Source: an uncultured delta proteobacterium (lineage in GTDB: Bacteria; Desulfobacterota; Desulfobacteria; Desulfobacterales; SG8-13). From it: DNA of 64,000 bases. A program made the position numbers and the translations under genes. Positions 1 through 33,300 of the stretch are shown piece after piece (positions within the stretch are counted from its first letter, which is position 1; every line of letters begins with the position of its first letter). The DNA lies in NCBI GenBank assembly GCA_963825595.1, contig CAWGUE010000026.1:26651-90650 (forward strand), read 5' to 3'. The notes beneath the pieces are model-generated. The model did no database searches and was not told the origin of the DNA. It worked only from the letters and a program-made list of their open reading frames with translations.

Positions 1-339
1 GTTCGATTCCGGTCGGATGCCCTGGTTCCCGGACGGCTGGCAACCGGTGATTATTACTGCCGGGAAGAAAAAGCAGGCGGGTCGATGGCGCGCCGCATTG
101 TCAGCAATCTGGCCGGCGAACTGACCCTGGCAGCCGAGCACCCTTGGGATGCCCCGCCGTCTGCCGGTAACCGGTTAGACATTCTTATCCGGCTCCAGCA
201 ACCTTACGTGCGGCCCGAACTGTGCATCGGCTGCGGCGTCTGCGAGCACGAATGCCCCGTACGGGGACGGCGGGCCATCAGGGTGACCGCGGAAAACGAA
301 AGCCGCCATCCCGAGCACGCGATGATCTTGGAGGCTTAA
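1..339 (+). CDS. 3' end of a 4Fe-4S dicluster/polyferredoxin protein (truncated by window edge)
   Basis: Frame open from base 1; CIGCGVCEHECP ferredoxin motif near the C-terminus. Confidence 0.75.
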   Translation, partial: VRFRSDALVPGRLATGDYYCREEKAGGSMARRIVSNLAGELTLAAEHPWDAPPSAGNRLDILIRLQQPYVRPELCIGCGVCEHECPVRGRRAIRVTAENESRHPEHAMILEA

Positions 340-340
340 A

Positions 341-556
341 CAGTGGCCACCCATAAACGCCCCTTAGGTTCTGATTCCCAATATCCCTTTGTCCCGCGCC
401 GAGCATCGGCGAGATGAACGGAAAAAAGCGCGCGGAACTGTTTGAGTCCGCCGCATGCGGGCGAGTTTTCGCGGGCTCCTGCGCATCGACGACGCGCCGC
501 AACGGTGCAACTTTTCCGAGTCCTCCACCAGAGGTGGAGGGCTTAGATCGATACTA
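341..556. repeat. Possible degenerate MITE/REP-like intergenic element
   Basis: Starts CAGTGGCCACCCATAAACGCC, resembling the reverse complement of the right end of the 37405/48100/61707 elements; contains hairpin CTCCACCAGAGGTGGAG. Confidence 0.35.
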
Positions 557-581
557 AAACATCCAAGAAAGGACGGATATC

Positions 582-1802
582 ATGTCTTCAAAAAATCACG
601 ACCACCTGACCCGCAGATCGTTTCTCAAGGCTGCCGGTACCGTCGGCCTGGGATCGCTTGTGGCCAACTATGGAGAAAGCGCGGCGGCCTCTACGAACCC
701 GGTGACTTCGTCGGAGACCCTACCCAGACGCTCTTTCGGTAAAACCGGTGAGATGGTGCCGATTCTCTCACTGGGCGGTATGTTTGACATCCCCAACAAC
801 CAGCTGTTGCTCAAACAGGCCGTCAAGTGGGGTGTCACCCACTGGGACACGGCCAACTCTTACGGTGGAGGGCGCAGTGAAAAAGGGATCGGAAAATTTT
901 TTGCACGCTATCCGGAAGATCGCAAAAAGATCTTTCTGGTCACCAAATCCGGTGCCTGGACTGTCAACGGCATGACGGAACATCTGGAAAAATCACTTGA
1001 AAGAATGCAGACCGACTATGTCGATCTATTTTTCGTCCACGGTATCAGCAGCATTCGGGAAATGGATAACGACGTTAAAAATTGGGCTGAAAAGGCCAAG
1101 TCCGCGGGTAAAATCCGCTATTTCGGCTTCAGCACCCACAGCAACATGGAGGAATGCCTGCTGGATGCGGCCAAGCTCGGCTGGATCGACGGCATCATGA
1201 TGACTTACAATTACCGTTTGATGCATTCAGACAGGATGACGGCTGCCGTAGAGGCTTGCACCCGGGCCGGCATCGGCCTGACCGCCATGAAAACCCAGGG
1301 CGGTGGACCGATAAAGACTGAAACCGAAACGGAGATGAAGCTGGCCGGCCGGTTCCTGGAGAAGGGATATACAGACGGACAGGCCAAGCTCAAGGCGGTC
1401 TGGGAAAACCCGCTCATCGCCACCATCTGTTCCCAGATGCCGAACCTGACACTGCTGATGAGCAACGTGGCCGCGGCAGTGAACAAAACCCGCATCAGCG
1501 CCCGCGACAAAAAAATGCTGCAGCAATATGCCCTTGAAACACAGTCGCATTACTGTGCCGGCTGCACCGGTATCTGCGAACCGGCGGTGGCCCATAAGGT
1601 GCCCATCGGTGACGTCATGCGCTGCCTGATGTACAGTCGCAGCTATGCGGATTTCAAACAGGCGCAAGATGTGTTCCGAGAGATACCGGCCGCAGCGCGC
1701 GAGCGGTTGACCAAGCTCGATTACTCGGCGGCAGAGCGCCGTTGCCCCCGCAAGCTTTCCATCGGTCGTCTCATGCAGCAGGCGGCCCGGGACCTGGGAT
1801 AG
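582..1802 (+). CDS. Aldo/keto reductase with Tat signal and C-terminal Cys motif
   Basis: TRRSFLK twin-arginine motif; DTANSYG..SE and LERMQTDYVDL AKR motifs; YCAGCTGIC...CP tail. Confidence 0.9.
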   Translation: MSSKNHDHLTRRSFLKAAGTVGLGSLVANYGESAAASTNPVTSSETLPRRSFGKTGEMVPILSLGGMFDIPNNQLLLKQAVKWGVTHWDTANSYGGGRSEKGIGKFFARYPEDRKKIFLVTKSGAWTVNGMTEHLEKSLERMQTDYVDLFFVHGISSIREMDNDVKNWAEKAKSAGKIRYFGFSTHSNMEECLLDAAKLGWIDGIMMTYNYRLMHSDRMTAAVEACTRAGIGLTAMKTQGGGPIKTETETEMKLAGRFLEKGYTDGQAKLKAVWENPLIATICSQMPNLTLLMSNVAAAVNKTRISARDKKMLQQYALETQSHYCAGCTGICEPAVAHKVPIGDVMRCLMYSRSYADFKQAQDVFREIPAAARERLTKLDYSAAERRCPRKLSIGRLMQQAARDLG

Positions 1803-1877
1803 CTGAACCGTTCGCCCACTTTCGACCTGGCAAGTAGGAAACCGTTTGAGAGGAACGGTTTCAAATAGGAGAATGAC

Positions 1878-2201
1878 ATGTCAGTGAAAATGGTCTACAT
1901 GACGGCCGGCAGCCGTGAAGAAGCCCGTAAGATCGGCCGGTCGCTGATCGACGCCCGGCTGGCGGCCTGTGTCAACATCATCGACAAGATGAGTTCCATC
2001 TTCAGGTGGGAGGGCGCCATCGAGGAAGCCGAGGAAGTCGTTATGATTGCCAAGACAACGGATACCCGCCTGCCGGCGCTGATGGCGCATGTGACGGCAA
2101 AACACAGTTACGAGTGCCCCTGCATCGTGAGCCTGCCGGTGGAAAACGGTCATCAGCCGTTTCTGGACTGGATCGCGACCGAGGTGGACGACTCTCAATA
2201 A
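1878..2201 (+). CDS. cutA: Divalent-cation tolerance protein CutA
   Basis: RLAACVNI, FRWEG and HSYECPCI motifs; AGGAG RBS. Confidence 0.93.
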   Translation: MSVKMVYMTAGSREEARKIGRSLIDARLAACVNIIDKMSSIFRWEGAIEEAEEVVMIAKTTDTRLPALMAHVTAKHSYECPCIVSLPVENGHQPFLDWIATEVDDSQ

Positions 2202-2279
2202 CCCTGTGCGGATCTCGACGTTTGTCGGCCACCCGATCACTGACAATACACGACGTCGCATAGAGGTGGCACCTTAAGA

Positions 2280-2705
2280 ATGAACGCCGACCAACAGAAT
2301 GATTTGCCGGAGGACACCTCTGGTCCGATCGCAACAGGCCCGGCTGCCACTGCCGACGATCCAGGGCCACCCAGCCAAAAGGATCGATCCGTCGGCAAGG
2401 TGCTCATCGGGGCAGAACTCGACAAGGTTCTGACGATTCTGACTGTAGCGGCGATTCTGGCAGTGGTCATTACCCGTGCCCGCAGAATACTTGTTCGGGC
2501 CGTCGCTCAAAGCACTGCCGCCAGTGACCTTTCACGTTTTTTCGCCCCAGAGATCGCCCGGCAGATCACTGCGGCTGAAGAAGAGATTCGGGCCGGTAAG
2601 GGACAGGTGCGACATGCGGCCATTTTAAACACCGATATCCGTAGTTTTACGCGCATGGCGACCACGATCGAACCGGATGAACTCATGGTCATTCTCGCTG
2701 AATAA
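2280..2705 (+). pseudogene. Fragment of a membrane-bound class III adenylate/guanylate cyclase
   Basis: TM helix, LSRFFAPEIA helical region and AILNTDIRSFT first catalytic motif, then TAA; rest of the domain absent. Confidence 0.65.
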
Positions 2706-2865
2706 TTGATGATTTAGAGCTTTCATTTTGTGCACCGCTGTGCTTTGATGCCCGCCGCAGCCGTCAAAGACCTGTTCCAATCTTTGAATCGGACTGGCTT
2801 TACTCCGTGAAATAAATGCTTATTATGGACCTGTTTCGAGCGCAACCCACAAAGGAGGCACGTTC

Positions 2866-3378
2866 ATGTACAACAAAGTCGTGATGGACCATTTCAGAAA
2901 CCCCCGGAACGTCGGAGTTATTGAAGATGCAGACGGTATCGGCGAGGTCGGCAATCCCCTGTGCGGCGACATGATGACAATCTACCTGAAGATCGAGAAC
3001 GAGAACATCGGTGACATCAAATTTCAAACCTTCGGGTGCGGATCGGCCATTGCCGTCTCGAGCATGCTCACCGAAATCGCCAAGGGCAAGAGTTTGGATG
3101 AAGCCAAAAAAATCACCAACAAAGACGTGGCCAAGGCCCTCGAGGGTCTGCCGAAGAATAAGCTCCACTGTTCCAATCTTGGCGCGGACGCGCTGCAGAT
3201 GGCAATCAAGGACTACGAAGACCGCAAAGTCGGAAAAAAGCGCCCGGAGTTGATCCGGATCGACAAGCACGAGCACTCGCACGGCGAACAGTGCTACTGC
3301 CCCTACTGCGACATCGAACTGGAAGGCGGCACGACTTTTTGCGACGCCTGCCAGAGCAGCTTAGAAGAAGAACATTAA
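2866..3378 (+). CDS. iscU: IscU/NifU-N Fe-S scaffold with C-terminal His-rich/zinc-ribbon extension
   Basis: DHFRNPRNVG, NPLCGD, FGCGSAIA and KLHCS (three scaffold Cys); tail HEHSH-CPYC-CDAC; AAGGAGG RBS. Confidence 0.92.
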   Translation: MYNKVVMDHFRNPRNVGVIEDADGIGEVGNPLCGDMMTIYLKIENENIGDIKFQTFGCGSAIAVSSMLTEIAKGKSLDEAKKITNKDVAKALEGLPKNKLHCSNLGADALQMAIKDYEDRKVGKKRPELIRIDKHEHSHGEQCYCPYCDIELEGGTTFCDACQSSLEEEH

Positions 3379-3400
3379 ATCGACCGGAGAATGAGGAGCG

Positions 3401-4576
3401 ATGAAAATCATCAACCTGGATCACATATCTTCCAAGCCGCTGCTTCCGGAAGTCAAAGCGGCCATGGTGGAGGCCATCAACAAAGACTATCACAATCCCT
3501 CCAGTCAGCATAAAAGCGGAGAGGTGGCCGCCGAAGCCCTTGATCAAGCCCGGGAATCGGTTGCCGGCCTGATCAATGCGGCCCTACCCAAGGAAGTCGT
3601 ATTCAATTCCGGCGGCACCGAGTCGGTCAATCATGCCATCAAGGGCGTGGCCATGGCCAATGCCGAAAAAGGCAAACATATCGTCACCTCGAACATCGAG
3701 CACACAGCCGTTATCAGGAGTCTTCGACGGCTCAAGTCGATGGGGTACAAGGTGACCTCGGTCTCCGTAGACGAGAAGGGGCGCGTCAACCCCCGGGAAG
3801 TGGCTGAGGCTATCACCGACGAAACCATCCTGGTCTCGATCATGCACAGCAACAACGAAACCGGGACCATTCAACCCATCGAGGAAATCGGCGCCATTAC
3901 ACGCGAAAAGAAAGTGATCTTTCACACCGATGCCGTCGATTCCGTCGGCGTGGTACCGATTGACGTCCAGGAAATGGGTGTCGATCTGCTCAGTTTTGCT
4001 GCCAACAACTTTTACGGCCCCACCGGCGTCGGTGGGCTCTACATTCGTCGCGGCACGCGCATTTTCCCCCTCATCGACGGCGGTGTTCAGGAAGGCAACA
4101 AACGCGCCGGGACCGAAAACCTGCTCGGCATCATCGGCACGGGTGTCGCCGCCGACATCACCCGCCGCAACCTGGACAAATGGTACCGCCATTACAAGGC
4201 GCTCACAACCAAACTGCTCAATGACCTGCCCGAATACATAGACGATTACATCATCAACACCCACCCCGAACACAGCCTTCCCAACATGGTGTCGATGTCG
4301 GTGCAGTACATCGAGGGTGAAAGTGTCATGCTGATGCTCGATGACGACAACATCGCGGTGTCCACGCGATCGGCCTGTGCCACCGGTTCCCTGCGGGCAT
4401 CACATGTGCTGATTTCCCTTGGACTCAGCCATGCGGACGCCCAGGGAACACTGGTGTTGTCTTTCGGCAAAGACAACACCGTCGAGGATGTCACGGCCTT
4501 TCTGGTCGCGCTGAAAAACGTGGTCACGACGCTGAGAAATATCTCACCGCTCTACCAGAAGGTTGCTCAAGGATAA
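3401..4576 (+). CDS. IscS/NifS-like protein, atypical (PLP Lys absent)
   Basis: SGGTES, EHTAV, NNETGTIQP, RAGTEN and SAC motifs; canonical SxHKxYGPKG reads AANNFYGPTG. Confidence 0.9.
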   Translation: MKIINLDHISSKPLLPEVKAAMVEAINKDYHNPSSQHKSGEVAAEALDQARESVAGLINAALPKEVVFNSGGTESVNHAIKGVAMANAEKGKHIVTSNIEHTAVIRSLRRLKSMGYKVTSVSVDEKGRVNPREVAEAITDETILVSIMHSNNETGTIQPIEEIGAITREKKVIFHTDAVDSVGVVPIDVQEMGVDLLSFAANNFYGPTGVGGLYIRRGTRIFPLIDGGVQEGNKRAGTENLLGIIGTGVAADITRRNLDKWYRHYKALTTKLLNDLPEYIDDYIINTHPEHSLPNMVSMSVQYIEGESVMLMLDDDNIAVSTRSACATGSLRASHVLISLGLSHADAQGTLVLSFGKDNTVEDVTAFLVALKNVVTTLRNISPLYQKVAQG

Positions 4577-4765
4577 CGGACCCCGCCGCCCCTTTTGAGC
4601 CCGGCGGGGCGGTGGCCGCTATTCAGGGCCGGTGTTTAAAATGTGCGCGGGCGCCCCACGGCGGCAGAAACGTCCTACGATTGAAGCCACCGCCGCTCAT
4701 TCGAGGAGGAAACGGCGGGGATTCGATGGACGTCATTGGGGCCGGAAAGGATCTCTGCTGACATC

Positions 4766-5428
4766 ATGCTGATCGCAGACAACCTCCACGCCTTTATCTG
4801 GAAGTCCAACACGGTAAACAATTGCAACGCCTATCTGCTCGATGGGCCGACACCGATCCTGGTCGATCCCGGCCATGCCCACCTGTTCGATCACGTCCGT
4901 CTTTCCATGGAAAAAGTGAATCTGGCGCTCGACGATCTGGGAATGATGCTTTGCACCCATGCGCATCCCGACCACATCGAGGCGGTCGAAAAGCATAAAC
5001 CCTCCACCGCCCTTTTCGCCCTCCACCAGGCGGACTGGCAACTGGTGCTTTCCATGGAACCCCAACTGCTGGCCATGGGCCTGCACCTTGAAGGGGTTAC
5101 CCCTGATTTCTTCGTCACCGAAGGAACGCTCGACATCGCGGGCACAGAGTTGCACGTGTTTCACACCCCCGGCCATTCGCCCGGTTCGGTCTGCTATTAC
5201 TGGCCGCGGCACAAGGCGCTCATTACCGGTGACCTGATCTTCAAGGAAGGTCTCGGGCGCACGGACCTGCCCGGCGGCAGCAGCGCGCAGTTGAAAACGA
5301 GTATCTTGCGGATGGCGGAACTCGACCTTGAATGGATACTACCCGGTCATGGTGAGATCATAAGGGGTGCGGCTGATGTCCGCCGCAATTTTGAACAGCT
5401 GGAATCGTTCTACTTCGCGTATATTTAA
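4766..5428 (+). CDS. MBL-fold metallo-hydrolase
   Basis: THAHPDH, TPGHSPG, TGD, GRTDLPGG and PGHG motifs. Confidence 0.9.
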   Translation: MLIADNLHAFIWKSNTVNNCNAYLLDGPTPILVDPGHAHLFDHVRLSMEKVNLALDDLGMMLCTHAHPDHIEAVEKHKPSTALFALHQADWQLVLSMEPQLLAMGLHLEGVTPDFFVTEGTLDIAGTELHVFHTPGHSPGSVCYYWPRHKALITGDLIFKEGLGRTDLPGGSSAQLKTSILRMAELDLEWILPGHGEIIRGAADVRRNFEQLESFYFAYI

Positions 5429-5470
5429 ATTGAATTCACCGCCGCCCGGAATCGGCGCAAATTTTCGCGA

Positions 5471-5992
5471 TTAATCTGATTGTTTCAGACGGTCCAGCAT
5501 TTCCTGGAAACAGGTCCGAATCCCATCCCATTCTGACACCCATTGAGGATCGGCCTCGAGGTTAGGCACTACGGCAGATCCCTTGATGTTGCGCGTTTGG
5601 GCCAATGCGTCCTTCAAATCGCTGCGCCGCTGTTTTTCGGCCGCATTCAGCGCCAATCGATATTCTTCCAGGACCGCATCCAGGCCGGAACAGTCAAATC
5701 CGAATAGTTCTTTCGCGACCGCCAACCAGAGGGCGTTGTCCTGATCCAGGCCGATACGGTCGAAAATTTCGGTTCGCATCCACGCTGCGTCCAAACCGGT
5801 GGTTTTCTGCATCTGTTGAATTTGATCTTTCAGCTGCTCGAGGGACAGCAGGCCGTCAAGGTGTCTTTGCAACAGCCCCTTGAATAACTTTTGCTCCTGG
5901 AGACGACTTTGCTGTTGTTTTTCTTCCGCGCTGAGCGTCAGGTGCCTGGTTTTTTCCATGACCAGGTCGAGTGTGCTCTTTATCTCTCCCAT
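5471..5992 (-). CDS. Hypothetical helical protein
   Basis: 173-aa ORF starting MGEIKSTLDLVMEKT; natural composition. Confidence 0.75.
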   Translation of the reverse strand: MGEIKSTLDLVMEKTRHLTLSAEEKQQQSRLQEQKLFKGLLQRHLDGLLSLEQLKDQIQQMQKTTGLDAAWMRTEIFDRIGLDQDNALWLAVAKELFGFDCSGLDAVLEEYRLALNAAEKQRRSDLKDALAQTRNIKGSAVVPNLEADPQWVSEWDGIRTCFQEMLDRLKQSD

Positions 5993-6139
5993 GTCTCGAC
6001 GTCCTTGGCTGTGCGTCCTTCAGCAACCGGTGTCCGGTGAAGATTTTTTCCGTTTCATAACGATATACCGGATGGCATCGTTTCTTTCCGCTCGAATGGA
6101 ACGACAAGGATTGCACTTGAAACGGTTAGCGGGGAAATA

Positions 6140-6574
6140 CTAGGTGCTTCCCATGCAGATGGTTTTGATGATCGGTTCGAACTCGGGGCGAATGTCGACA
6201 AGCGCCTGTAGTCTTTGCTTGTCGAAAATGGTTTCCAATGTCGGTGGCGAAAGCTTGATATCGACTTCCTTGGCAACCGTTTCGACCGTCACCGAAAGGG
6301 CATAAAGGGTCAATTTTTCGAACATGTCATTTTCCTGAATCTCGAGGCTGTCCCCATTCAAGTGGCGCAAAATTTCCGAGACGCAGGCCGAGAGAATCGG
6401 GTCGGCGGTAAAGTTGGCTTGGCGGCAATTGCCCCCTTCGAAATTCGCATCCAGAAAATCATCGACCATTTTCTGGATGCGTGTCAGCCATTCAACGTTG
6501 AGATTCTGGGGCAAAACCGCCTGGGGGCCTTTTGACAAGACTTCATTGCTGAATTTTGACAATAGCATGCGCAA
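6140..6574 (-). CDS. Hypothetical protein
   Basis: 144-aa ORF between co-oriented neighbours; AGGA upstream. Confidence 0.7.
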   Translation of the reverse strand: MRMLLSKFSNEVLSKGPQAVLPQNLNVEWLTRIQKMVDDFLDANFEGGNCRQANFTADPILSACVSEILRHLNGDSLEIQENDMFEKLTLYALSVTVETVAKEVDIKLSPPTLETIFDKQRLQALVDIRPEFEPIIKTICMGST

Positions 6575-6624
6575 ATTCCTGTGATTGATTGGTACCGAAA
6601 TTTCGGCCGTTCAGTGCTTCCCGC

Positions 6625-7059
6625 CTACTTTGAGGGAAATATCAATTGGTCCAGAATCAAACCGTGAAATCGGTCACCGCTCTCAGAGGCGAAGAGCCAT
6701 CCGAGATGAACCAAACATGCACTGCAGACGGCAACTTTCCAACGATAGCCTTTAAACCAAGTGAATTCTCCGGTGGCCGGGCCGGTGGTGCCGCATCCGT
6801 CGGCCGTTCGAAAACAACCGATGTCATATACGATCCCGTGGGGGTTCGCGAAAGTATGGTGATAGGCGCCTTCCTTTTCGGTCTGCTCGTCCGGATGCGT
6901 GACGGCGTGACCGCAGCGGCGACAAAGAATCAGTTTTTCTTCCTTCTCCTTTGTCTCGTGTCCAACCGCCTCTTGCGGACGGCCGCCCGGTTTTCCACGG
7001 GCCGGCTTGTCCCCCGGCAGGCGAAACCAATATAGAAGCCCGCTGTCGGCCGTATTCAT
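6625..7059 (-). CDS. Cereblon-like (CULT domain) zinc-binding protein
   Basis: CRRC...FANPHG...TWFKGYRW...CSAC..HLGWLF signature. Confidence 0.9.
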   Translation of the reverse strand: MNTADSGLLYWFRLPGDKPARGKPGGRPQEAVGHETKEKEEKLILCRRCGHAVTHPDEQTEKEGAYHHTFANPHGIVYDIGCFRTADGCGTTGPATGEFTWFKGYRWKVAVCSACLVHLGWLFASESGDRFHGLILDQLIFPSK

Positions 7060-7171
7060 GACCGTTGCATTCCATTGAGTGCACGACCGCTTGGCCGGCC
7101 GGCACCCGACCGCAATCGCTTTACATGCGATTCAGCATCGTTATATTCAGAGCGAATTGTCCTGAGAATCT

Positions 7172-7409
7172 AGAAGCCATCTCGAAAAAGTCTTTTCGCC
7201 CGATCCGCCAAAGGCGGATAAATCTCGGTGTTGAGCCCTCGTCTTTGGCAGGGGCGCAGGTCCCTTCCCGCGCCTCTGCGGACATACGTGAGTATGCGTG
7301 CGGGTTGGGACCCATAAAGAAGAATCGATCAGGCGGGGAATCCCGCACAGCGGGGATCCTCGGTCTCGCCTTGATCTGGACTGAAAATCATCATTTTGAG
7401 ATCGCTTCT
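7172..7409. mobile_element. MITE-like element with imperfect terminal inverted repeats
   Basis: Left AGAAGCCATCTCGAAAA versus right (revcomp) AGAAGCGATCTCAAAA; internal hairpins TCCGCCAAAGGCGGA and CATACGTGAGTATG. Confidence 0.6.
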
Positions 7410-7448
7410 CATCAATCATTGTCGAAAAATAAAACAAAGGTAGCCCGC

Positions 7449-7994
7449 ATGAAAAAAAATTTCAACTGGGTGATACTGGTCCTGCTGCTGCTCTTGAGTC
7501 AGACAGCCTTGGCTCAATCCAGCGCTATCGACGGGCGCTTCGAAGAGATTATTGGTCGTCTTTATTTAAACCACAGAAGCCTGTCGGTCGTCTATACCAA
7601 TCTGCACGACGCTGCACTCGATGCCGTCAACGGAACCGACCAGCAGCTCAGCACCATTCAAAAGTCCTACCTCTTTGTCAGTGAGGCCAACTTCGTGTGC
7701 TTCTACCAGTGGGAGCTGCTTTCTATCACGGGATACATAAAGGACAGCCATCGCTCCGACTATTTTACACTGCGGGTTAAGGATCTGGAGCGGGCCGCCT
7801 TCGAGTCACGCGACCGGGTTGTTTCCCTGAAACTCTATTCCGCCCAAATCGAGAACCCGGAACCCCGCGAGCTGCTCGATGAGGCCGTCGGCCTCATCGA
7901 GGCCAACATCGACATGTTTGAAGAATTAGCGGACCTGCTCAAACCCCTGGCAAACCCGCCCAATCCTTTTAATCGCAGCCTGCGCGACTCCTGA
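7449..7994 (+). CDS. Hypothetical exported helical protein
   Basis: MKK + hydrophobic core + ALA signal peptide; start reassigned to ATG 7449. Confidence 0.75.
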   Translation: MKKNFNWVILVLLLLLSQTALAQSSAIDGRFEEIIGRLYLNHRSLSVVYTNLHDAALDAVNGTDQQLSTIQKSYLFVSEANFVCFYQWELLSITGYIKDSHRSDYFTLRVKDLERAAFESRDRVVSLKLYSAQIENPEPRELLDEAVGLIEANIDMFEELADLLKPLANPPNPFNRSLRDS

Positions 7995-8183
7995 CCCGGA
8001 CGAGCGTATCGGCAGCTTATCCGCGCTGATGGAACCCTCGAGCAACAGGCTGATCATGGGCCGGGAATACGGTGGAAATGACTCGTCGCCGATCATGGTA
8101 ATGTCACCTGCGGGGTCGAATTGGCGGATGGTCTCGGCAGCGGTAACACCGGCAACGCCGTTTCCAAGTATGAGGTATTTCAT
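7926..8183 (-). pseudogene. 5' fragment of an FAD-dependent pyridine nucleotide oxidoreductase
   Basis: ILGNGVAGVTAA Rossmann motif and PYSRP; GGAGG RBS; similarity ends after about 60 aa where it meets the convergent gene. Confidence 0.75.
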
Positions 8184-8527
8184 CTTGGCCTCCAGTTGAC
8201 ATGCATGTGTTAGCCCACGGGCGCATGGGGCGGAAGGGGGTTCCGGACAACAGTTGGTCAGGGCGGGATTCCGCCGGGTCAGATCCGGATGCGGATATAA
8301 AGATTCCAGGAGAAAAATTTGAGCTGCATTTGCCCTCCTGAAGCGTTCACAGAACCATTCGGTTGATTGGAGAACATGGCGCAGATGGAAGAATCAATAT
8401 CGGCTCGCGCTGCGGATGTCAAGCGCGATTGGGGAAGGATGGCGCAAGGAAAGCGACCGCAAAATGTATCCAACCCGATCATTGGCCAAGGGTCTCAACC
8501 ATGCGGCATGCTGCTGCATTCAAACAG

Positions 8528-9511
8528 TCACTGGACAGCTAGAACGATTTTGCCGAAATGGCGACTGGCTTCCATCTCCCGGTGAGCGTCGGCTGCCGCC
8601 TCGAGAGGGTAGACCCGGTGCACCAGAGGTTCGATCCTCCGTTCTATGATGTGCGGCATGACCCGCTCCCTGAAGGCCGCCGTGATCCGGGCCTTTTCAG
8701 CAACACTGCGGGCGCGGATGACCGAGCCGATGACCCGCTGACGTTTGACCATCAAGTGGGCCAGGTTGATCGAGGCCGTGGCGCCGCTGGTCACCCCGAT
8801 GATCACCAGTCGCCCGCCCACGGCCAGAGCCTTCAAGTTGGGCGCCAGGTAATCGGCGCCGATATGGTCCAGGATCAGGTCTGCGCCGCGGTTTGCGGTG
8901 AACGACCGCACCTCGGCTGCAAAATCCTGTGAGCGATAGTCGACCACCCGATCCGTCCCCAGGGCCGCAACCCGGTCGATTTTTCCGGAAGAGGCCGTCA
9001 CGATGAGGGTCGCGTCCGGGGTCAGGGTTCGGCAAAGCTGAATCGCCGCCGTGTTGACGCCGCCGCCGCCCCCGTGCAGGAGGGCGGTTTCACCGGGCTG
9101 GAGGTCACCGATCAGATAAATATTCAAAAATGCCGTGATGTAGGTTTCGCTGATGCAAGCGGCTTGGGTGTAATCCATTTCCTCCGGTATGGGAATCAGA
9201 TGGCCGGCATATACCAGGGCATATTCGGCATAACCGCCGCCGGCCACGAGGCCCATAACCCGGTCTCCCGGTTTCCAATCGCCCACTCCGGGTCCGAGAG
9301 CGTCAACGACACCGGCCACCTCCAGACCGAGAATCGGCGATTCGCCCTTGGGCGGCGGGTAGTTCCCCTGGCGTTGAATGATGTCGGCCCGGTTCAACGA
9401 TGTCGCCATCACCCGGACCCTCACCTGATTCGGGCCCGGTACAGGCATGTCGGTCTCTCTGACCTGCATCATTTCCGGCCCGCCGAAAGCGTTTAAAAGG
9501 ACGGCTCTCAT
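8528..9511 (-). CDS. NAD(P)H:quinone oxidoreductase, PIG3/MDR family
   Basis: NRAD..QRQGNYPPPKG..ILGLE, GGGYAEY and HFGKIVL motifs. Confidence 0.92.
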   Translation of the reverse strand: MRAVLLNAFGGPEMMQVRETDMPVPGPNQVRVRVMATSLNRADIIQRQGNYPPPKGESPILGLEVAGVVDALGPGVGDWKPGDRVMGLVAGGGYAEYALVYAGHLIPIPEEMDYTQAACISETYITAFLNIYLIGDLQPGETALLHGGGGGVNTAAIQLCRTLTPDATLIVTASSGKIDRVAALGTDRVVDYRSQDFAAEVRSFTANRGADLILDHIGADYLAPNLKALAVGGRLVIIGVTSGATASINLAHLMVKRQRVIGSVIRARSVAEKARITAAFRERVMPHIIERRIEPLVHRVYPLEAAADAHREMEASRHFGKIVLAVQ

Positions 9512-9833
9512 TCGATTTCTTCTCCTTGGTTACGGCTATTTTTTTGAATCTCACGGCTTGCGGGGCGTATTCGGCCGATGATTTCAGCGGCCCATCACTT
9601 CCGGCCCGCATGTCCGATTTTGATACCGCGGAAGGTGTAAAAACTGTGTCGGTCGACGTCTTCTGTTTCGCAGGCGGACAGCTGGCGGAATGTTCGATAC
9701 TTAGACAACTTTTCTCCCGGGGAAGATCACGGAATCCGAGTTAAAGAGGCGGTGCGCATGCGGTTTCGGTTGGCTGAAAAACCGGAATCGGGACCTCGCA
9801 ACCCATCCGGCATGCCGTTATAGGTTACTCGGC

Positions 9834-10742
9834 TCAGCGGTTGAAAAGGATCATACCGCCGCAGATGAACACCATGCCGAAGATGTGAAAAATCTTCAGG
9901 GATTCGCCGAGCCACGCAATGGCCAGAATTGACGCGAACACGGGGATCAGATTGATGAATAACCCCGCCCGGTTGGCACCGATCACGGCCACGCCGTGAT
10001 TCCAGCACATGTAAGCGATAATCGACGGAAATGCCGCCACGTATAGGATGCTCGAAACGATATGGATATTGAGCGCCATGGGCGCGCTGTCGGTGGTCTC
10101 CCAGAGGTACAAGGGCAGCAGACCAAGCGTCCCGACACCGAAGGTATAAATGAGAAAACTCATCGGGTGAATCCGTGGTCGCCACCGCAGGAAAGCCGAG
10201 TAAAGGGCATAGATGACAACCGCCACCATCATCAGGATATCGCCTTCGGCGAAATTCAGATTGAAAAATGTGGCAAAGTCACCCCGCAGAACCACCAGAC
10301 CGGCACCGAAAACACACATGGCGACACCGAACAATTGGCGTTTGGTGACCGTCTCTTTGAAGGCGATCAGGGAAATCAATATGATCACGGCCGGCATCGC
10401 GGTTTGAATCAGCGCCCCGTTGATGGCCGTTGTGGTATGCACTGCCGCGTATAGCAGCGTGTTAAAGCAGGTAACCCCCGACAGAGACAAAAACAGGACG
10501 ATCTTCCAGTGCCTGACGACCACGCGCCAGTCCACTACCGCATACCGCCACGCAAACGGAAGCAGAATAGAAAAGGCGACCGTCCAGCGCCAGAAAGCGA
10601 GACTGACGGGTGCAATCATGTCGATCACCCCGCGCGCCAGAACAATATTGCCGGCCCAGCACAGTGGTGCGACCGCCAGAATCAGGTACGGCAGGGCACT
10701 GGTAACAGAGCCTGGTTCACTTTTTGCGTCGGGTGAAATCAT
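9834..10742 (-). CDS. EamA/DMT family transporter
   Basis: About 10 TM helices; WAGN, AFWRW and NLIPVF motifs. Confidence 0.9.
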   Translation of the reverse strand: MISPDAKSEPGSVTSALPYLILAVAPLCWAGNIVLARGVIDMIAPVSLAFWRWTVAFSILLPFAWRYAVVDWRVVVRHWKIVLFLSLSGVTCFNTLLYAAVHTTTAINGALIQTAMPAVIILISLIAFKETVTKRQLFGVAMCVFGAGLVVLRGDFATFFNLNFAEGDILMMVAVVIYALYSAFLRWRPRIHPMSFLIYTFGVGTLGLLPLYLWETTDSAPMALNIHIVSSILYVAAFPSIIAYMCWNHGVAVIGANRAGLFINLIPVFASILAIAWLGESLKIFHIFGMVFICGGMILFNR

Positions 10743-10808
10743 TAAGTTTACTCTAAGTCATTATTTAATCGAGCGTTTCAATTTCTGTAAGTCGAATATC
10801 TCGTGGTT

Positions 10809-10870
10809 TTCAAAAAACGTGCCGTTGTTCGAACGGTTTTTAAAAAGCCACTTATACCGCACTTCCTTGT
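10809..10870 (-). promoter_or_regulatory. Upstream element shared with the cupin gene; includes a sigma54-like -24/-12 sequence
   Basis: Minus strand CGGCACGTTTTTTGAA (GG-N10-GA); CACTTATACCGCA at 10849-10861 is identical to 26556-26568. Confidence 0.5.
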
Positions 10871-10924
10871 TTCAGAATTTATTTTTTTAATGCGGTAACC
10901 GATTCATCAACATCCGAGCCGGCA

Positions 10925-12464
10925 TTATTGTAGGGTATTTTCAACCGGCCTATCGGGGTCGGGTTCGATGCCGGCCATCAGGGGTCCGATGCGCGCGATT
11001 TCCTCTGAGTCATCACTGTCGATGACATCCATTATGCGGCCCCCGAAAAGAACCGCAATGCGATCCGACAGGGCCAGCGCCTCGTTCAGGTCACCGGTAA
11101 CGAGCAATACGCCGGCCCGCTCCCGCGCTTTGAGCAGCACCTGCCAGATGTCTTCGGTGGCGCCGATGTCGAGCCCCTGGGTCGGCTGTTCGGCCACGAT
11201 CAGGCGGGGTCGGCGGTAGAATTCCCTCGCCAGCACCATTTTTTGAAGATTGCCGCCTGAAAGATGCCGGGCCAGCGCCAGGGGCTCGGGCGGCTGGACA
11301 TCGAATTCGGCGATCAACTCCCGGGTTTTTCTATGGGCTTTGCGGAGCTGCAGCCAGGGACCCCGTGAAAATCCCTGGCGGGTGGTGAGCAGGAAATTCT
11401 CCACCAGGTTCATATCGAGGCAGGTGGCCAGACCACGTCGGTCCTCGGGAATATAGATCAGATTGCCGTCCCAGCTGTGCCGGGCATAGAACTGTTCCCA
11501 GGATCGCCCGAGAATGTTGACCGTGCCGTTCGCCGGCCGCAGCAGCCCGCAAACGGTTTCCACCAGGGGCTTCTGACCGTTGCCGGCCACGCCGACCACT
11601 GCCAGGATCTCCCCCTGCCGCACCTGAAGATCGATATCATCGAGACCGTTGCCGCTCAACCCGCTGATCCGCAAAACCATCTGGCGCGCCTCGATCGGCT
11701 GTTTTTTTACCTGCAGCACAACTTCCCGGCCGACCATCCTCATCGCCAGATCCGCCTTCGAACCCACCTCTCCCGCCGCCATTTCCGCCACCACCGCGCC
11801 TTTGCGCAGGATGGCAATGTCGTCGGCCAGGGCCATGACTTCGTCGAGTTTGTGACTGATGAAAACGATGGCCTTGCTCCTGGGTTGCCATCTGCCGCAG
11901 GGCATCAAACAACTGCTCGATTTCAGGAGGCGTGAGCACGGCGGTGGGTTCGTCAAAAATCAGCACGCGGCTCTGGCGGTATAGCAGCTTCAATATCTCC
12001 ACCCGCTGCCGTTCCCCCATGGACAGTTCGGAAACACGGGCCGATGGATCGATCCCCAAACTGTAACGCCGCGACAGGTCCGTTACCTGCTGCCGCATCT
12101 TACTGGGAGACAACCAGATGCCTTCCGATTGTCCCAGAAACACGTTTTCCGCAACGGTCATGGCTTCCACCAACATAAAGTGCTGGTACACCATTCCGAT
12201 CCCGGCGCTGTGGGCCGCCTGGGTGGTGTGATTCGATGTTTCGGTCCCGTCAATCAGGATGCGTCCGCTGTCGGGTTGCAGCCGGCCGGACAAAATACTC
12301 ATCAGGGTGCTTTTCCCGGCACCGTTTTCTCCCAGGAGCGCCTTGATCCGCCCGACGTGGATATCGAGGGTGATTTCCCGGTTGGCCTTGACCGGTCCGA
12401 AGGCCTTGCTGATATGTTCCAGCCTGATTATCGGGGGGAGCCTATGACCCATGTCGATGCTCAC
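10925..12464 (-). CDS. Nucleoside/sugar ABC transporter ATP-binding protein (two NBDs), frameshifted near 11878
   Basis: GENGAGKS and FDEPT in the upstream frame; [14 protein letters not shown] in the next frame; deleting one A restores ...[12 protein letters not shown]. Confidence 0.88.
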
Positions 12465-31509: not shown

Positions 31510-33300
31510 TCAGACCCACCGCAGGGCTTCTGAAAGGCACGTTTCCCGCAGCAAGCGCTTTTTGCCCAGGCGCAGGCAAACGGTCCGGCCGGAGGCGGTC
31601 AAACGGCGAAGATCCGTCATCAGCACGCGCAACCGGTCATAGGCCGGTAGGTCGAGGCAGCGTTGCCTGGTGAAGACACCACGATGATAATGCGGTGGCA
31701 CAGGCGGCGCATCGCAGGAGTCCACCTCGAACCGGTCGACGACACGCCCCTCGCTGATAACGAGTCCGATGATGGTCTCCCGCCGCGAAGTCCAAACCAG
31801 AGACGATTCGCTCAACAACATCAACCACCGCGCCCGGCGCAGCAACCAGGCGCATTGACCCAGTACAGATTCAATCCGGCTGATCACATCTTCCGCTGTC
31901 CATTGGACATCGACAGGACCGGTTTCCGTCTCTACCGCACTGCCGATTGTCGGCTCTTGCTCGATTTCGGCCGCCGCTGCGGCCAGCCGTCTTTTCCTGT
32001 CACCGATGGCGAGCAATGATCGCCAGAAAGGTTTCGATTCAACAGCCGATGCATACTGCTCCCTGAAGATTCGTAGACCCTCTTGAAGACATGCGTCGCC
32101 GGGGCAGAAGCACTCCGGCAGGTCAAGCAGCACGGTTGCTTCAGGGGTGGCTGCTGCAGGCCGGGCTCCGATGGGGCTCGTCATGAATCCACCGATGGCA
32201 TGCAACGCCGCAAAAGGACCCCGGTGCAGCACGGGGCCGAACCGATGCCGGCGATCGGGTGTATGCGAAAAGTGGCTGAAGTGAGGAGACATGAACCACG
32301 TGCGGCGATTGTCCGCCTGCAGGGCGACGTTATAGGGCGGGCAGAGTCGCTTGATCTCCTCGGATTCCAGGAGAGCGGCCTCAAGCGCCGATGCAGTGGG
32401 CGTTATTTTCAAGCCTGCAGCCTGGGTAAGCATTTCAAGGGATTTCTCCGAACTGCAGCCGGTTTTACGAAAATGACTGTTTACCCTCTGGCGAAGACGC
32501 GTCGCCTTACCGATGTAGAGAGGATCACCGTTGGAGCGCACGAAACGATACACACCAGGACCGTCCGGCAGGTCACGCCGCATGGCCTCGGCCATGGGAT
32601 ACCGGCGCACAGTGCCGGCCGGCACCGGTGTTTTCTCGAGCCAGCATTTCAGTTCCGAAAGAGTGTGAATCTTATCGGAGCGTCCGAGAAGAGCGACCAG
32701 CTCACGCCAGATGACGGCCGTGGCCGTAACGTGGGCGGCGCAGCGCCGGCTGGGGGTAACCGTGTGCCCAAAGTATCCGGCCAGGGCCCGCAAGCCTTTG
32801 CGGGGAAGTTCGGGCAGCAGGCGCCTCGCAATTTCATGGCTGCAGATGATGTCGAACGGAAATATCGATGCGGCTCCCTGCGCCTCGTGAAGATGCCGTA
32901 AAAAAGGACCTTCAAAGCGCGCAAAGTGAATGACTGTCGGGCAGCATTGCGATTGGTTAAGTCCGGATATCGACCGGGCCGTTTCGCTCAGGCGGTGCCA
33001 CACGGTATTGGTCGACCGCCCATCGACTAAATCGGTTTGCTTAATACCCGTCAGACGCGCCACGGGTGACGGAATCGTCTCGGTTGTCGGCAATCGAACC
33101 AGGCAGCTGACAACCGGCAAACGGCCCGGTGCGGCCACGTGTGCGGCCGATGTCCGCATCCATCCCACTTCAATTAGACTGGCGCTTTCCGGACGGCTAC
33201 CGGTGGTTTGGCAATCGAAGATCAGCACCTCGAGTGTCTCGAGTGGTGAATCGATCCCCATGCCTTCAGGGGGAGTGTTTGTCATTGGATGGTGCGACAC
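31510..33300 (-). CDS. DEDDh-like exonuclease domain (degenerate) fused to UvrC/Cho-like GIY-YIG endonuclease
   Basis: IFDCQTTG...LIEVGW; GVYRF..LYIGKA..LRQRV.SHF...ALLE...P.YN. Confidence 0.82.
   Translation of the reverse strand: MSHHPMTNTPPEGMGIDSPLETLEVLIFDCQTTGSRPESASLIEVGWMRTSAAHVAAPGRLPVVSCLVRLPTTETIPSPVARLTGIKQTDLVDGRSTNTVWHRLSETARSISGLNQSQCCPTVIHFARFEGPFLRHLHEAQGAASIFPFDIICSHEIARRLLPELPRKGLRALAGYFGHTVTPSRRCAAHVTATAVIWRELVALLGRSDKIHTLSELKCWLEKTPVPAGTVRRYPMAEAMRRDLPDGPGVYRFVRSNGDPLYIGKATRLRQRVNSHFRKTGCSSEKSLEMLTQAAGLKITPTASALEAALLESEEIKRLCPPYNVALQADNRRTWFMSPHFSHFSHTPDRRHRFGPVLHRGPFAALHAIGGFMTSPIGARPAAATPEATVLLDLPECFCPGDACLQEGLRIFREQYASAVESKPFWRSLLAIGDRKRRLAAAAAEIEQEPTIGSAVETETGPVDVQWTAEDVISRIESVLGQCAWLLRRARWLMLLSESSLVWTSRRETIIGLVISEGRVVDRFEVDSCDAPPVPPHYHRGVFTRQRCLDLPAYDRLRVLMTDLRRLTASGRTVCLRLGKKRLLRETCLSEALRWV

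Follow-up and report, generated by a model that had tools for sequence, protein, structure and literature searches.

A lysine-less IscS homologue encoded with a tailed IscU in Desulfobacterota, a candidate non-desulfurase partner in Fe-S cluster assembly

Described IscS-IscU systems and the locus in the window

IscS2 of Archaeoglobus fulgidus is described in a review as inactive, bound to PMP, and supplying the IscU cluster with a Cys ligand (PMC8918507). Methanosarcina acetivorans has an IscS1 (MA0808) in which the catalytic Lys and the residues that bind PLP are reportedly missing and the Cys motif is kept, with an enlarged partner, IscU1 (MA0807; 24.2 kDa versus approximately 14 kDa), besides two further iscSU and two SMS copies; by this description, IscS1 would resemble the protein studied here (PMC7585200). 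The MIS system pairs MisS with MisU, where MisS is defined as a cysteine desulfurase (PMC13066941). For the SMS system (SmsBC), assembly from sulfide without a desulfurase has been proposed in anaerobes (PMC13066941; bioRxiv 10.1101/2024.03.20.586028).

The window, which is the whole 64,000-nucleotide stretch of DNA that was analysed, encodes an IscS-like and IscU-like pair with the following features:

2866..3378, + strand: IscU/MisU scaffold, 170 aa (TIGR03419, 194.6 bits, above the 187.9 cut-off)
3226..3375, + strand: C-terminal extension of IscU, 50 residues, a His-rich linker and CxCPYC-x10-CxxC, predicted metal-binding
3401..4576, + strand: Lys-less IscS/MisS homologue with the type I cysteine desulfurase fold, 391 aa (PF00266, E 1.5e-71)
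3701..3703, + strand: His101, the PLP-stacking His, kept
3929..3940, + strand: DAVD, with Asp177 (pyridine-N partner) retained and the conserved Gln replaced by Asp180
4004..4009, + strand: Asn202-Asn203 (AAC at 4004-4006 and AAC at 4007-4009) in place of His-Lys, the Lys being that of the PLP Schiff base
4364..4405, + strand: loop TRSACATGSLRASH with Cys326 (TGT, 4376-4378) and the clade-specific Arg323, where canonical enzymes have Gly
4454..4456, + strand: Val352 at the position of the substrate-carboxylate Arg, from alignment to solved desulfurases

The iscU gene lies upstream and ends 22 nt before the start of the Lys-less iscS, an intact ORF of 391 codons with zero internal stops. Profile, alignment, and model all give the latter a class V aminotransferase fold with the long Cys loop of type I enzymes. 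The AlphaFold2 model has a pLDDT of 83.3 overall and matches NFS1, A. fulgidus IscS, and E. coli IscS with Foldseek TM scores of 0.88-0.93; confidence is low at the Cys loop (residues 324-348, loop pLDDT below 50). The best NCBIfam model is TIGR03402, with a score of 427.6 bits that is below its cut-off of 530.75, and the protein also falls under the cut-offs of NF010611, TIGR02006, TIGR03235, TIGR03403, and NF002806, the other NCBIfam desulfurase models listed.

A. fulgidus IscS2-IscU (PDB 4eb5, 4eb7, 4hvk; D199K variant 4r5f) has the same fold (TM 0.88-0.90 on the query, 40-42% identity), and over the C-terminal half of the protein A. fulgidus IscS gives the best match in the PDB. Its motifs are DYTSAKP, DATAS, SSNDIYGPKG, STGSAC, and GTLLLTL. 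Both proteins have Asn at the His site (Asn198-Asp199 in A. fulgidus), lack Lys, Gln, and Arg, and share S-x-K-P, the loop Cys, and an IscU partner. They differ at the Lys site (Asp in A. fulgidus; Asn, Thr, Pro, or Gln in this clade), in the loop (STGSAC versus STRSAC), and in a phosphate-binding Ser, replaced by Ala in the window; a His/Cys-rich tail sets the IscU of the window apart from A. fulgidus IscU, and A. fulgidus also has SufBC, whereas no SufB was found in this genome or in the six relatives described below. The coordinated substitutions are the signature already known from A. fulgidus IscS2: Lys, His, Gln, and Arg are absent, the loop Cys remains, and an intact IscU is encoded alongside.

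As in MIS, an IscS-like protein and a single-domain IscU-like protein form a two-gene locus, with intact scaffold ligands and no chaperones, carriers, or other accessory genes nearby (1.5-5 kb flanks); unlike in MisS, the catalytic Lys, Gln, and Arg are missing. SmsBC are unrelated proteins of a system whose SufB family was found neither in this genome nor in the six relatives. By analogy, the protein would not be a member of the active type I desulfurases and would work like A. fulgidus IscS2. This kind of Lys-less IscS is already known; new here are the breadth of the clade, its own loop, its tailed IscU, and genomes in which the pair apparently stands alone. No paper on a Desulfobacterota Lys-less IscS, biochemical data included, was found in open-access PMC or bioRxiv.

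The best PDB sequence matches are 9WEP, 9WER, 9WEW, 9WF8, 9WFB, 9WFE, and 9WFY, 406-aa entries named "cysteine desulfurase", which are absent among the fold-search matches listed. Across this series Ala becomes Ile, Gln becomes Ala or Pro, Lys becomes Leu, and Arg becomes Val, stepwise changes toward the natural Lys-less pattern that suggest unpublished or not yet located work on a related pair; a search of open-access PMC and bioRxiv did not find a source paper.

Residues lost and retained across the family

A sequence-only reading of the window had listed substitutions in a full-length ORF with the SAC cysteine intact, and translation and alignment agree with it throughout. DHISSKP begins at 3419, AANNFYGPTG at 3998, and TLVLS at 4448, DAVD is in its place, the ORF is complete, and Cys326 is encoded at 4376-4378. 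On the solved desulfurases, Asn203 aligns with the Schiff-base Lys, Asp180 with the conserved Gln, and Val352 with the substrate-carboxylate Arg; the Asp which that reading attributed to A. fulgidus IscS at the Lys position is Asp199 by alignment. Asn202-Asn203 thus occupies the H-K of the S-x-H-K motif that bears the Schiff-base Lys, and neither the substrate-carboxylate Arg nor the conserved Gln is present. The stacking His, pyridine Asp, and loop Cys are all retained.

We compared the best 120 of 7794 homologues with E ≤1e-50 (77-99% identity). Among these best 120, position 203 is Thr in 102, Asn in 17, Ser in one, and Lys in none, so that the orthologues with His-Lys which would have spoken against the sequence-only reading did not appear. 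His101, Asp177, Asp180, Asn202, Arg323, Cys326, and Val352 are each present in 120 of these 120, as is Gly72 of the phosphate cup, while its Thr73 is found in 119. Purifying selection is indicated by dN/dS values of 0.08-0.12 in five pairs, a sixth pair being saturated. What is kept under selection is the fold, the Cys loop, and the linkage to IscU.

In the wider clade of 85 sequences, the Lys site holds Gln (29), Thr (27), Pro (21), Asn (4), Ser (2), or other residues (2). The conserved trait at this site is therefore the absence of Lys and not Asn, with Thr, Pro, or Gln as the usual residues. Gly72, His101, Asp177, Asn202, and Cys326 are each found in 85 of 85, and position 180 is variable. 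Arg or Lys at 323 is likewise universal (85/85, by group definition), versus Gly in 57 of 58 Lys-bearing type I sequences. Lys12 was considered as a substitute Lys and rejected, as it occurs in 112 of 120 close homologues (best of 7794) but in only 16 of 85 clade members; the only columns with Lys in at least 80% of the clade (81, 90, and 387) lie outside the active-site motifs. Ala200 and Asn202 presumably replace two phosphate contacts. Because His101, Asp177, and the Gly72-Thr73 cup remain, it is possible, by analogy, that PLP or PMP is bound non-covalently with these two contacts changed. Beside the stacking His, Thr102 (ACA, 3704-3706) is found in the window only, the position being Asn in 120 of the best 120 of 7794 homologues.

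Among 201 genomes of the class, 52 carry a match that is full or nearly so (61-100% identity) and another two a partial one; Lys is absent in all 34 of the 52 carriers inspected (the 30 best and four others). The fetched loci yielded 169 distinct IscS-like sequences, 103 of them without Lys, and 85 of those have a T-[RK]-S-A-C loop; these loci were picked by score and are thus not an unbiased sample. Of the 150 representatives taken at 50% identity, 127 possess all of Lys, Gln, Arg, and Cys; another 15 jointly lack Lys, Gln, and Arg and keep Cys, and eight are mixed or broken. Sources named for some of the 15 are Odinarchaeum, Chloroflexota, and Latescibacterota. Sister Lys-less groups (L179-L190, L192, L193, L200, L201, L210, L027) have a GSAC-type loop and the order iscS-iscU wherever iscU is in view, with DsrE-type, TusA, or Rrf2 genes near some loci and two Lys-less paralogues in some genomes.

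A tree was calculated from 62 of 120 picked rows after 15 diagnostic columns were dropped, with an A. fulgidus-like row (P0141, E 1.9e-128 to 4eb5) as proxy for the A. fulgidus sequence. In it, the Lys-less rows from bacteria group together (SH-aLRT 99), along with one canonical and one intermediate Lys-bearing row; row P0134 has Arg at the Lys site. A. fulgidus-like rows lie apart from this group in the free tree, and enforcing a single Lys-less clade gave a likelihood 11.86 higher (AU p 0.666), so that, with this proxy, a common origin with the archaeal Lys-less proteins is neither shown nor rejected.

The IscU partner and other Fe-S machinery

The IscU residues C33, D35, C58, K99, H101, and C102 are all intact; they are counterparts of residues listed as critical in E. 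coli IscU in a preprint (bioRxiv 10.1101/2024.03.20.586028). The tail matches Pfam Zn_Ribbon_1 weakly (E 0.0036, below cut-off), and its dN/dS is well below 1 in four of four pairs. IscU lies upstream of the Lys-less iscS in 21 of 21 close loci, and an adjacent IscU with a CxxC..CxxC tail was found in 84 of 85 clade loci, which confirms the linkage to this IscU type that the sequence-only reading had proposed to examine. None of the 29 IscU/NifU genes adjoining a Lys-bearing IscS has such a tail (66 Lys-bearing loci, 37 of them without IscU/NifU in view). Three clostridial IscU proteins have a Cys tail of a different type.

No other neighbour recurs in more than nine Lys-less loci (1.5-5 kb flanks). 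A gene for the ferredoxin-thioredoxin reductase beta-chain (FeThRed_B) adjoins the pair in six loci of one family (L149-L154), possibly as an electron link. The gene after the pair in L005 (3425-4612) resembles quinolinate synthase nadA by sequence, and a presumed ferritin/rubrerythrin-like ORF precedes iscU in the G096 family (L105, L213).

Complex prediction for the Lys-less IscS with IscU gave 0.58 versus 0.00 for the best control and was graded weak; the runs agree in at least 81% of contacts and the partner pLDDT is at least 76. This mark was reached by 116 of 157 solved and two of 215 mismatched pairs, and scores up to 0.60 cover only 18 of the 157 solved pairs but both of those mismatched ones. 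The predicted score may also reflect memory of the solved like complex (4eb5).

Contigs from RNA runs (X5, X6, X16) lie on both iscU and the Lys-less iscS. Of 30 bins of positions 1-12000, X5 covers 18 and X16 covers 11 (both from one study), compared with 30 for DNA run X1 and 27 for RNA run X6; these RNA runs were found with this stretch and are represented by contigs, so that their coverage is no proof of transcription and does not rank genes. A promoter scan gave one site (2799-2826) versus 1.1 expected, and a GC hairpin after the stop has z 0.10; neither carries weight as evidence. Elsewhere in the window, positions 2280-2705 (+) hold an adenylate/guanylate cyclase remnant, three blocks of which match a 472-aa Guanylate_cyc ORF of the relative L004, with two long internal stretches missing relative to that ORF. 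An ABC-transporter ATPase appears to be spread over two overlapping frames (11637-12464 and 10925-11956, −), which suggests a frameshift. At approximately 7200-7400, two runs show a short stretch where summed contig depth is high and loose ends are numerous, which suggests a repeated element.

The genome of this strain, which comes from sediment samples, is 95% complete. It encodes a canonical three-domain nifU-nifS on contig C14, a second Lys-bearing IscS homologue on C13, and dsrA; no SufB match was found in it. Because of this nifU-nifS, the Lys-less pair is a second system in this genome, and the possibility that it is the sole one here is ruled out. A second IscS-like match occurs in 48 of the 52 class carriers and is lacking in four, and a second homologue was also found in five of five further carriers tested from the phylum. 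Since most carriers have such a gene, sulfur supply in trans is possible for most of them.

Six genomes (G010, G054, G096, G150, G489, and G064; 99, 96, 93, 96, 99, and 97% complete) appear to have the Lys-less pair as their sole system, although all are incomplete assemblies, three of them share a genus, contamination is 6% in one, and in one the gene is cut by a contig end. In a PF00266 search of G010, G054, G096, and G150, the Lys-less gene was followed solely by a SerC-like gene and weak matches to aminotransferases, and in all six genomes the next PF00266 match after the Lys-less gene is SerC-like by sequence. In the G096 family, three of three genomes (93, 97, and 99% complete) have only the Lys-less gene at E ≤1e-15; none of the three genes has the Lys, and a contig end truncates one of them. 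SufB had no match in any of the six genomes, the control being positive in 14 of 14. NifU_N has one match, the partner, in four of the six and one more, divergent match in the other two. Radical SAM matches number 26-49 in each of five such genomes tested, and dsrA is above cut-off in four of four tested. An obligate heterodimer with canonical NifS is disfavoured, as no canonical NifS was found in these six genomes. G139, a congener of G054, has both a second homologue and SufB.

A divergent NifU_N-family protein is encoded at approximately 31710-32192 of G000:C31 (L141) with no adjoining desulfurase, and others at L139 and L140; L140 and L141 have GxCxDT, CLxTxAC, and HCAELA motifs. Several weak NifU_N matches in G407 and G427 may be of the same kind.

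Possible roles of the pair

The reading we prefer, and consider probable, is that the Lys-less IscS is a non-desulfurase partner that docks the IscU encoded with it and provides Cys326 while clusters are assembled from sulfide. With Lys, His, Gln, and Arg absent, it most likely releases no sulfur from cysteine; Cys326 would serve as a temporary ligand while a [2Fe-2S] cluster is built on IscU, and inorganic sulfide, as gene content suggests, would probably be the sulfur source. In the genome of the window, it would operate alongside the canonical, cysteine-dependent NifU-NifS.

Normal desulfurase catalysis is very unlikely by analogy with E. coli IscS, because the K206A and Q183E variants each abolish its desulfurase activity (PMC9978102); the claim of the sequence-only reading that the protein is not a desulfurase is therefore well supported. 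Its suggestion of a partner in Fe-S assembly also gains support, from the intact IscU to which the gene is tightly linked (84 of 85 loci) and from the A. fulgidus precedent, which includes the loss of the Arg. By analogy with A. fulgidus IscS2-IscU, complex formation with IscU and ligation by the Cys are likely. That ambient sulfide is used we still infer, as that reading did: genomes without another desulfurase or SufB and with dsrA speak for it, and against it stand the canonical nifU-nifS of this genome and the failure of A. fulgidus iscS2U2 to complement E. coli UT109 anaerobically with Na2S. A Methanothrix iscSU pair failed too, and no IscSU pair passed the UT109 test (bioRxiv 10.1101/2024.03.20.586028).

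More tentatively, the tailed iscU and Lys-less iscS could constitute a self-sufficient, cysteine-independent Fe-S system of sulfide-producing Desulfobacterota, an IscU-based counterpart of SmsBC in which the dead desulfurase would act as an assembly platform, the tail may supply metal or electrons, and the pair would be the only machinery in some lineages.

It is unlikely that Cys326 instead takes sulfane sulfur, be it from NifS in trans, from a TusA/DsrE-type carrier, or from polysulfide, and hands it to IscU in a persulfide relay. The near-invariance of Cys326 and its loop in the best 120 of 7794 homologues would fit such a relay, as would the second IscS-like gene of most carrier genomes and the DrsE_2 (three loci) or TusA (three loci) genes near some sister-group loci. 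However, in the clade to which the window belongs no neighbour of this sort is recurrent (1.5-5 kb flanks), no desulfurase that could act as donor was found in the six genomes, and the Cys is a cluster ligand in the solved A. fulgidus complex (PMC8918507).

We regard as improbable a remodelled site, with non-covalent PLP or PMP or no cofactor, in which Asn202, Asp180, and Arg323 would serve another reaction or sulfur substrate. His101, Asp177, Gly72, and Asn202 are universal in the clade (85/85), Arg or Lys323 replaces Gly, and A. fulgidus IscS is reported still to bind PMP (PMC8918507), but the Lys position drifts across the clade, position 180 varies, Lys12 occurs in only 16 of 85, and the Lys-rich columns (at least 80%; 81, 90, and 387) are outside the active-site motifs. 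The model is, moreover, unreliable at 324-348 and so gives no firm position for Arg323.

There is similarly little likelihood that IscU or spontaneous chemistry builds the cluster and that the IscS homologue is a holding, stabilising, or regulatory partner that protects it, stores it, or gates its release. Such a role would accord with the failed complementation by the A. fulgidus pair (bioRxiv 10.1101/2024.03.20.586028) and with two observations on M. acetivorans in PMC7585200: IscS1 alone formed inclusion bodies, and only IscS2 and IscU2 were consistently found in proteomes. It accords less well with the strong constraint in genomes that have a high Fe-S demand and yielded no other system, although by sequence it is hard to tell from the reading we prefer.

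A sequencing error or a decaying pseudogene, for which only the Thr102 private to the window (Asn in 120/120, best of 7794) might speak, can be dismissed, as the sequence-only reading had also argued, because the losses are common to 120 of 120 homologues (Lys in 0/120, best of 7794), dN/dS is approximately 0.1, and an independent DNA contig (955 nt, eight differences, no gaps) covers the Lys-site codon, with none of the differences listed falling at 4004-4009. An independent contig also matches 3479-3754 with zero differences, which makes Thr102 a real allele.

Returning to the partner role that we prefer, a 2022 review (PMC8918507) lists as open questions both the reason for which A. fulgidus retains an inactive IscS and the origin of its sulfur, and the only in vivo test that we located had a negative outcome (bioRxiv 10.1101/2024.03.20.586028). 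Both A. fulgidus and M. acetivorans have back-up systems that hide the function. The clade described here is common (52 of 201 class genomes sampled) and includes genomes with no other assembly system found, so that its bacterial genes would allow sulfide-based assembly on IscU to be tested more cleanly. In these bacteria, the annotation "cysteine desulfurase" overcounts cysteine-dependent systems.
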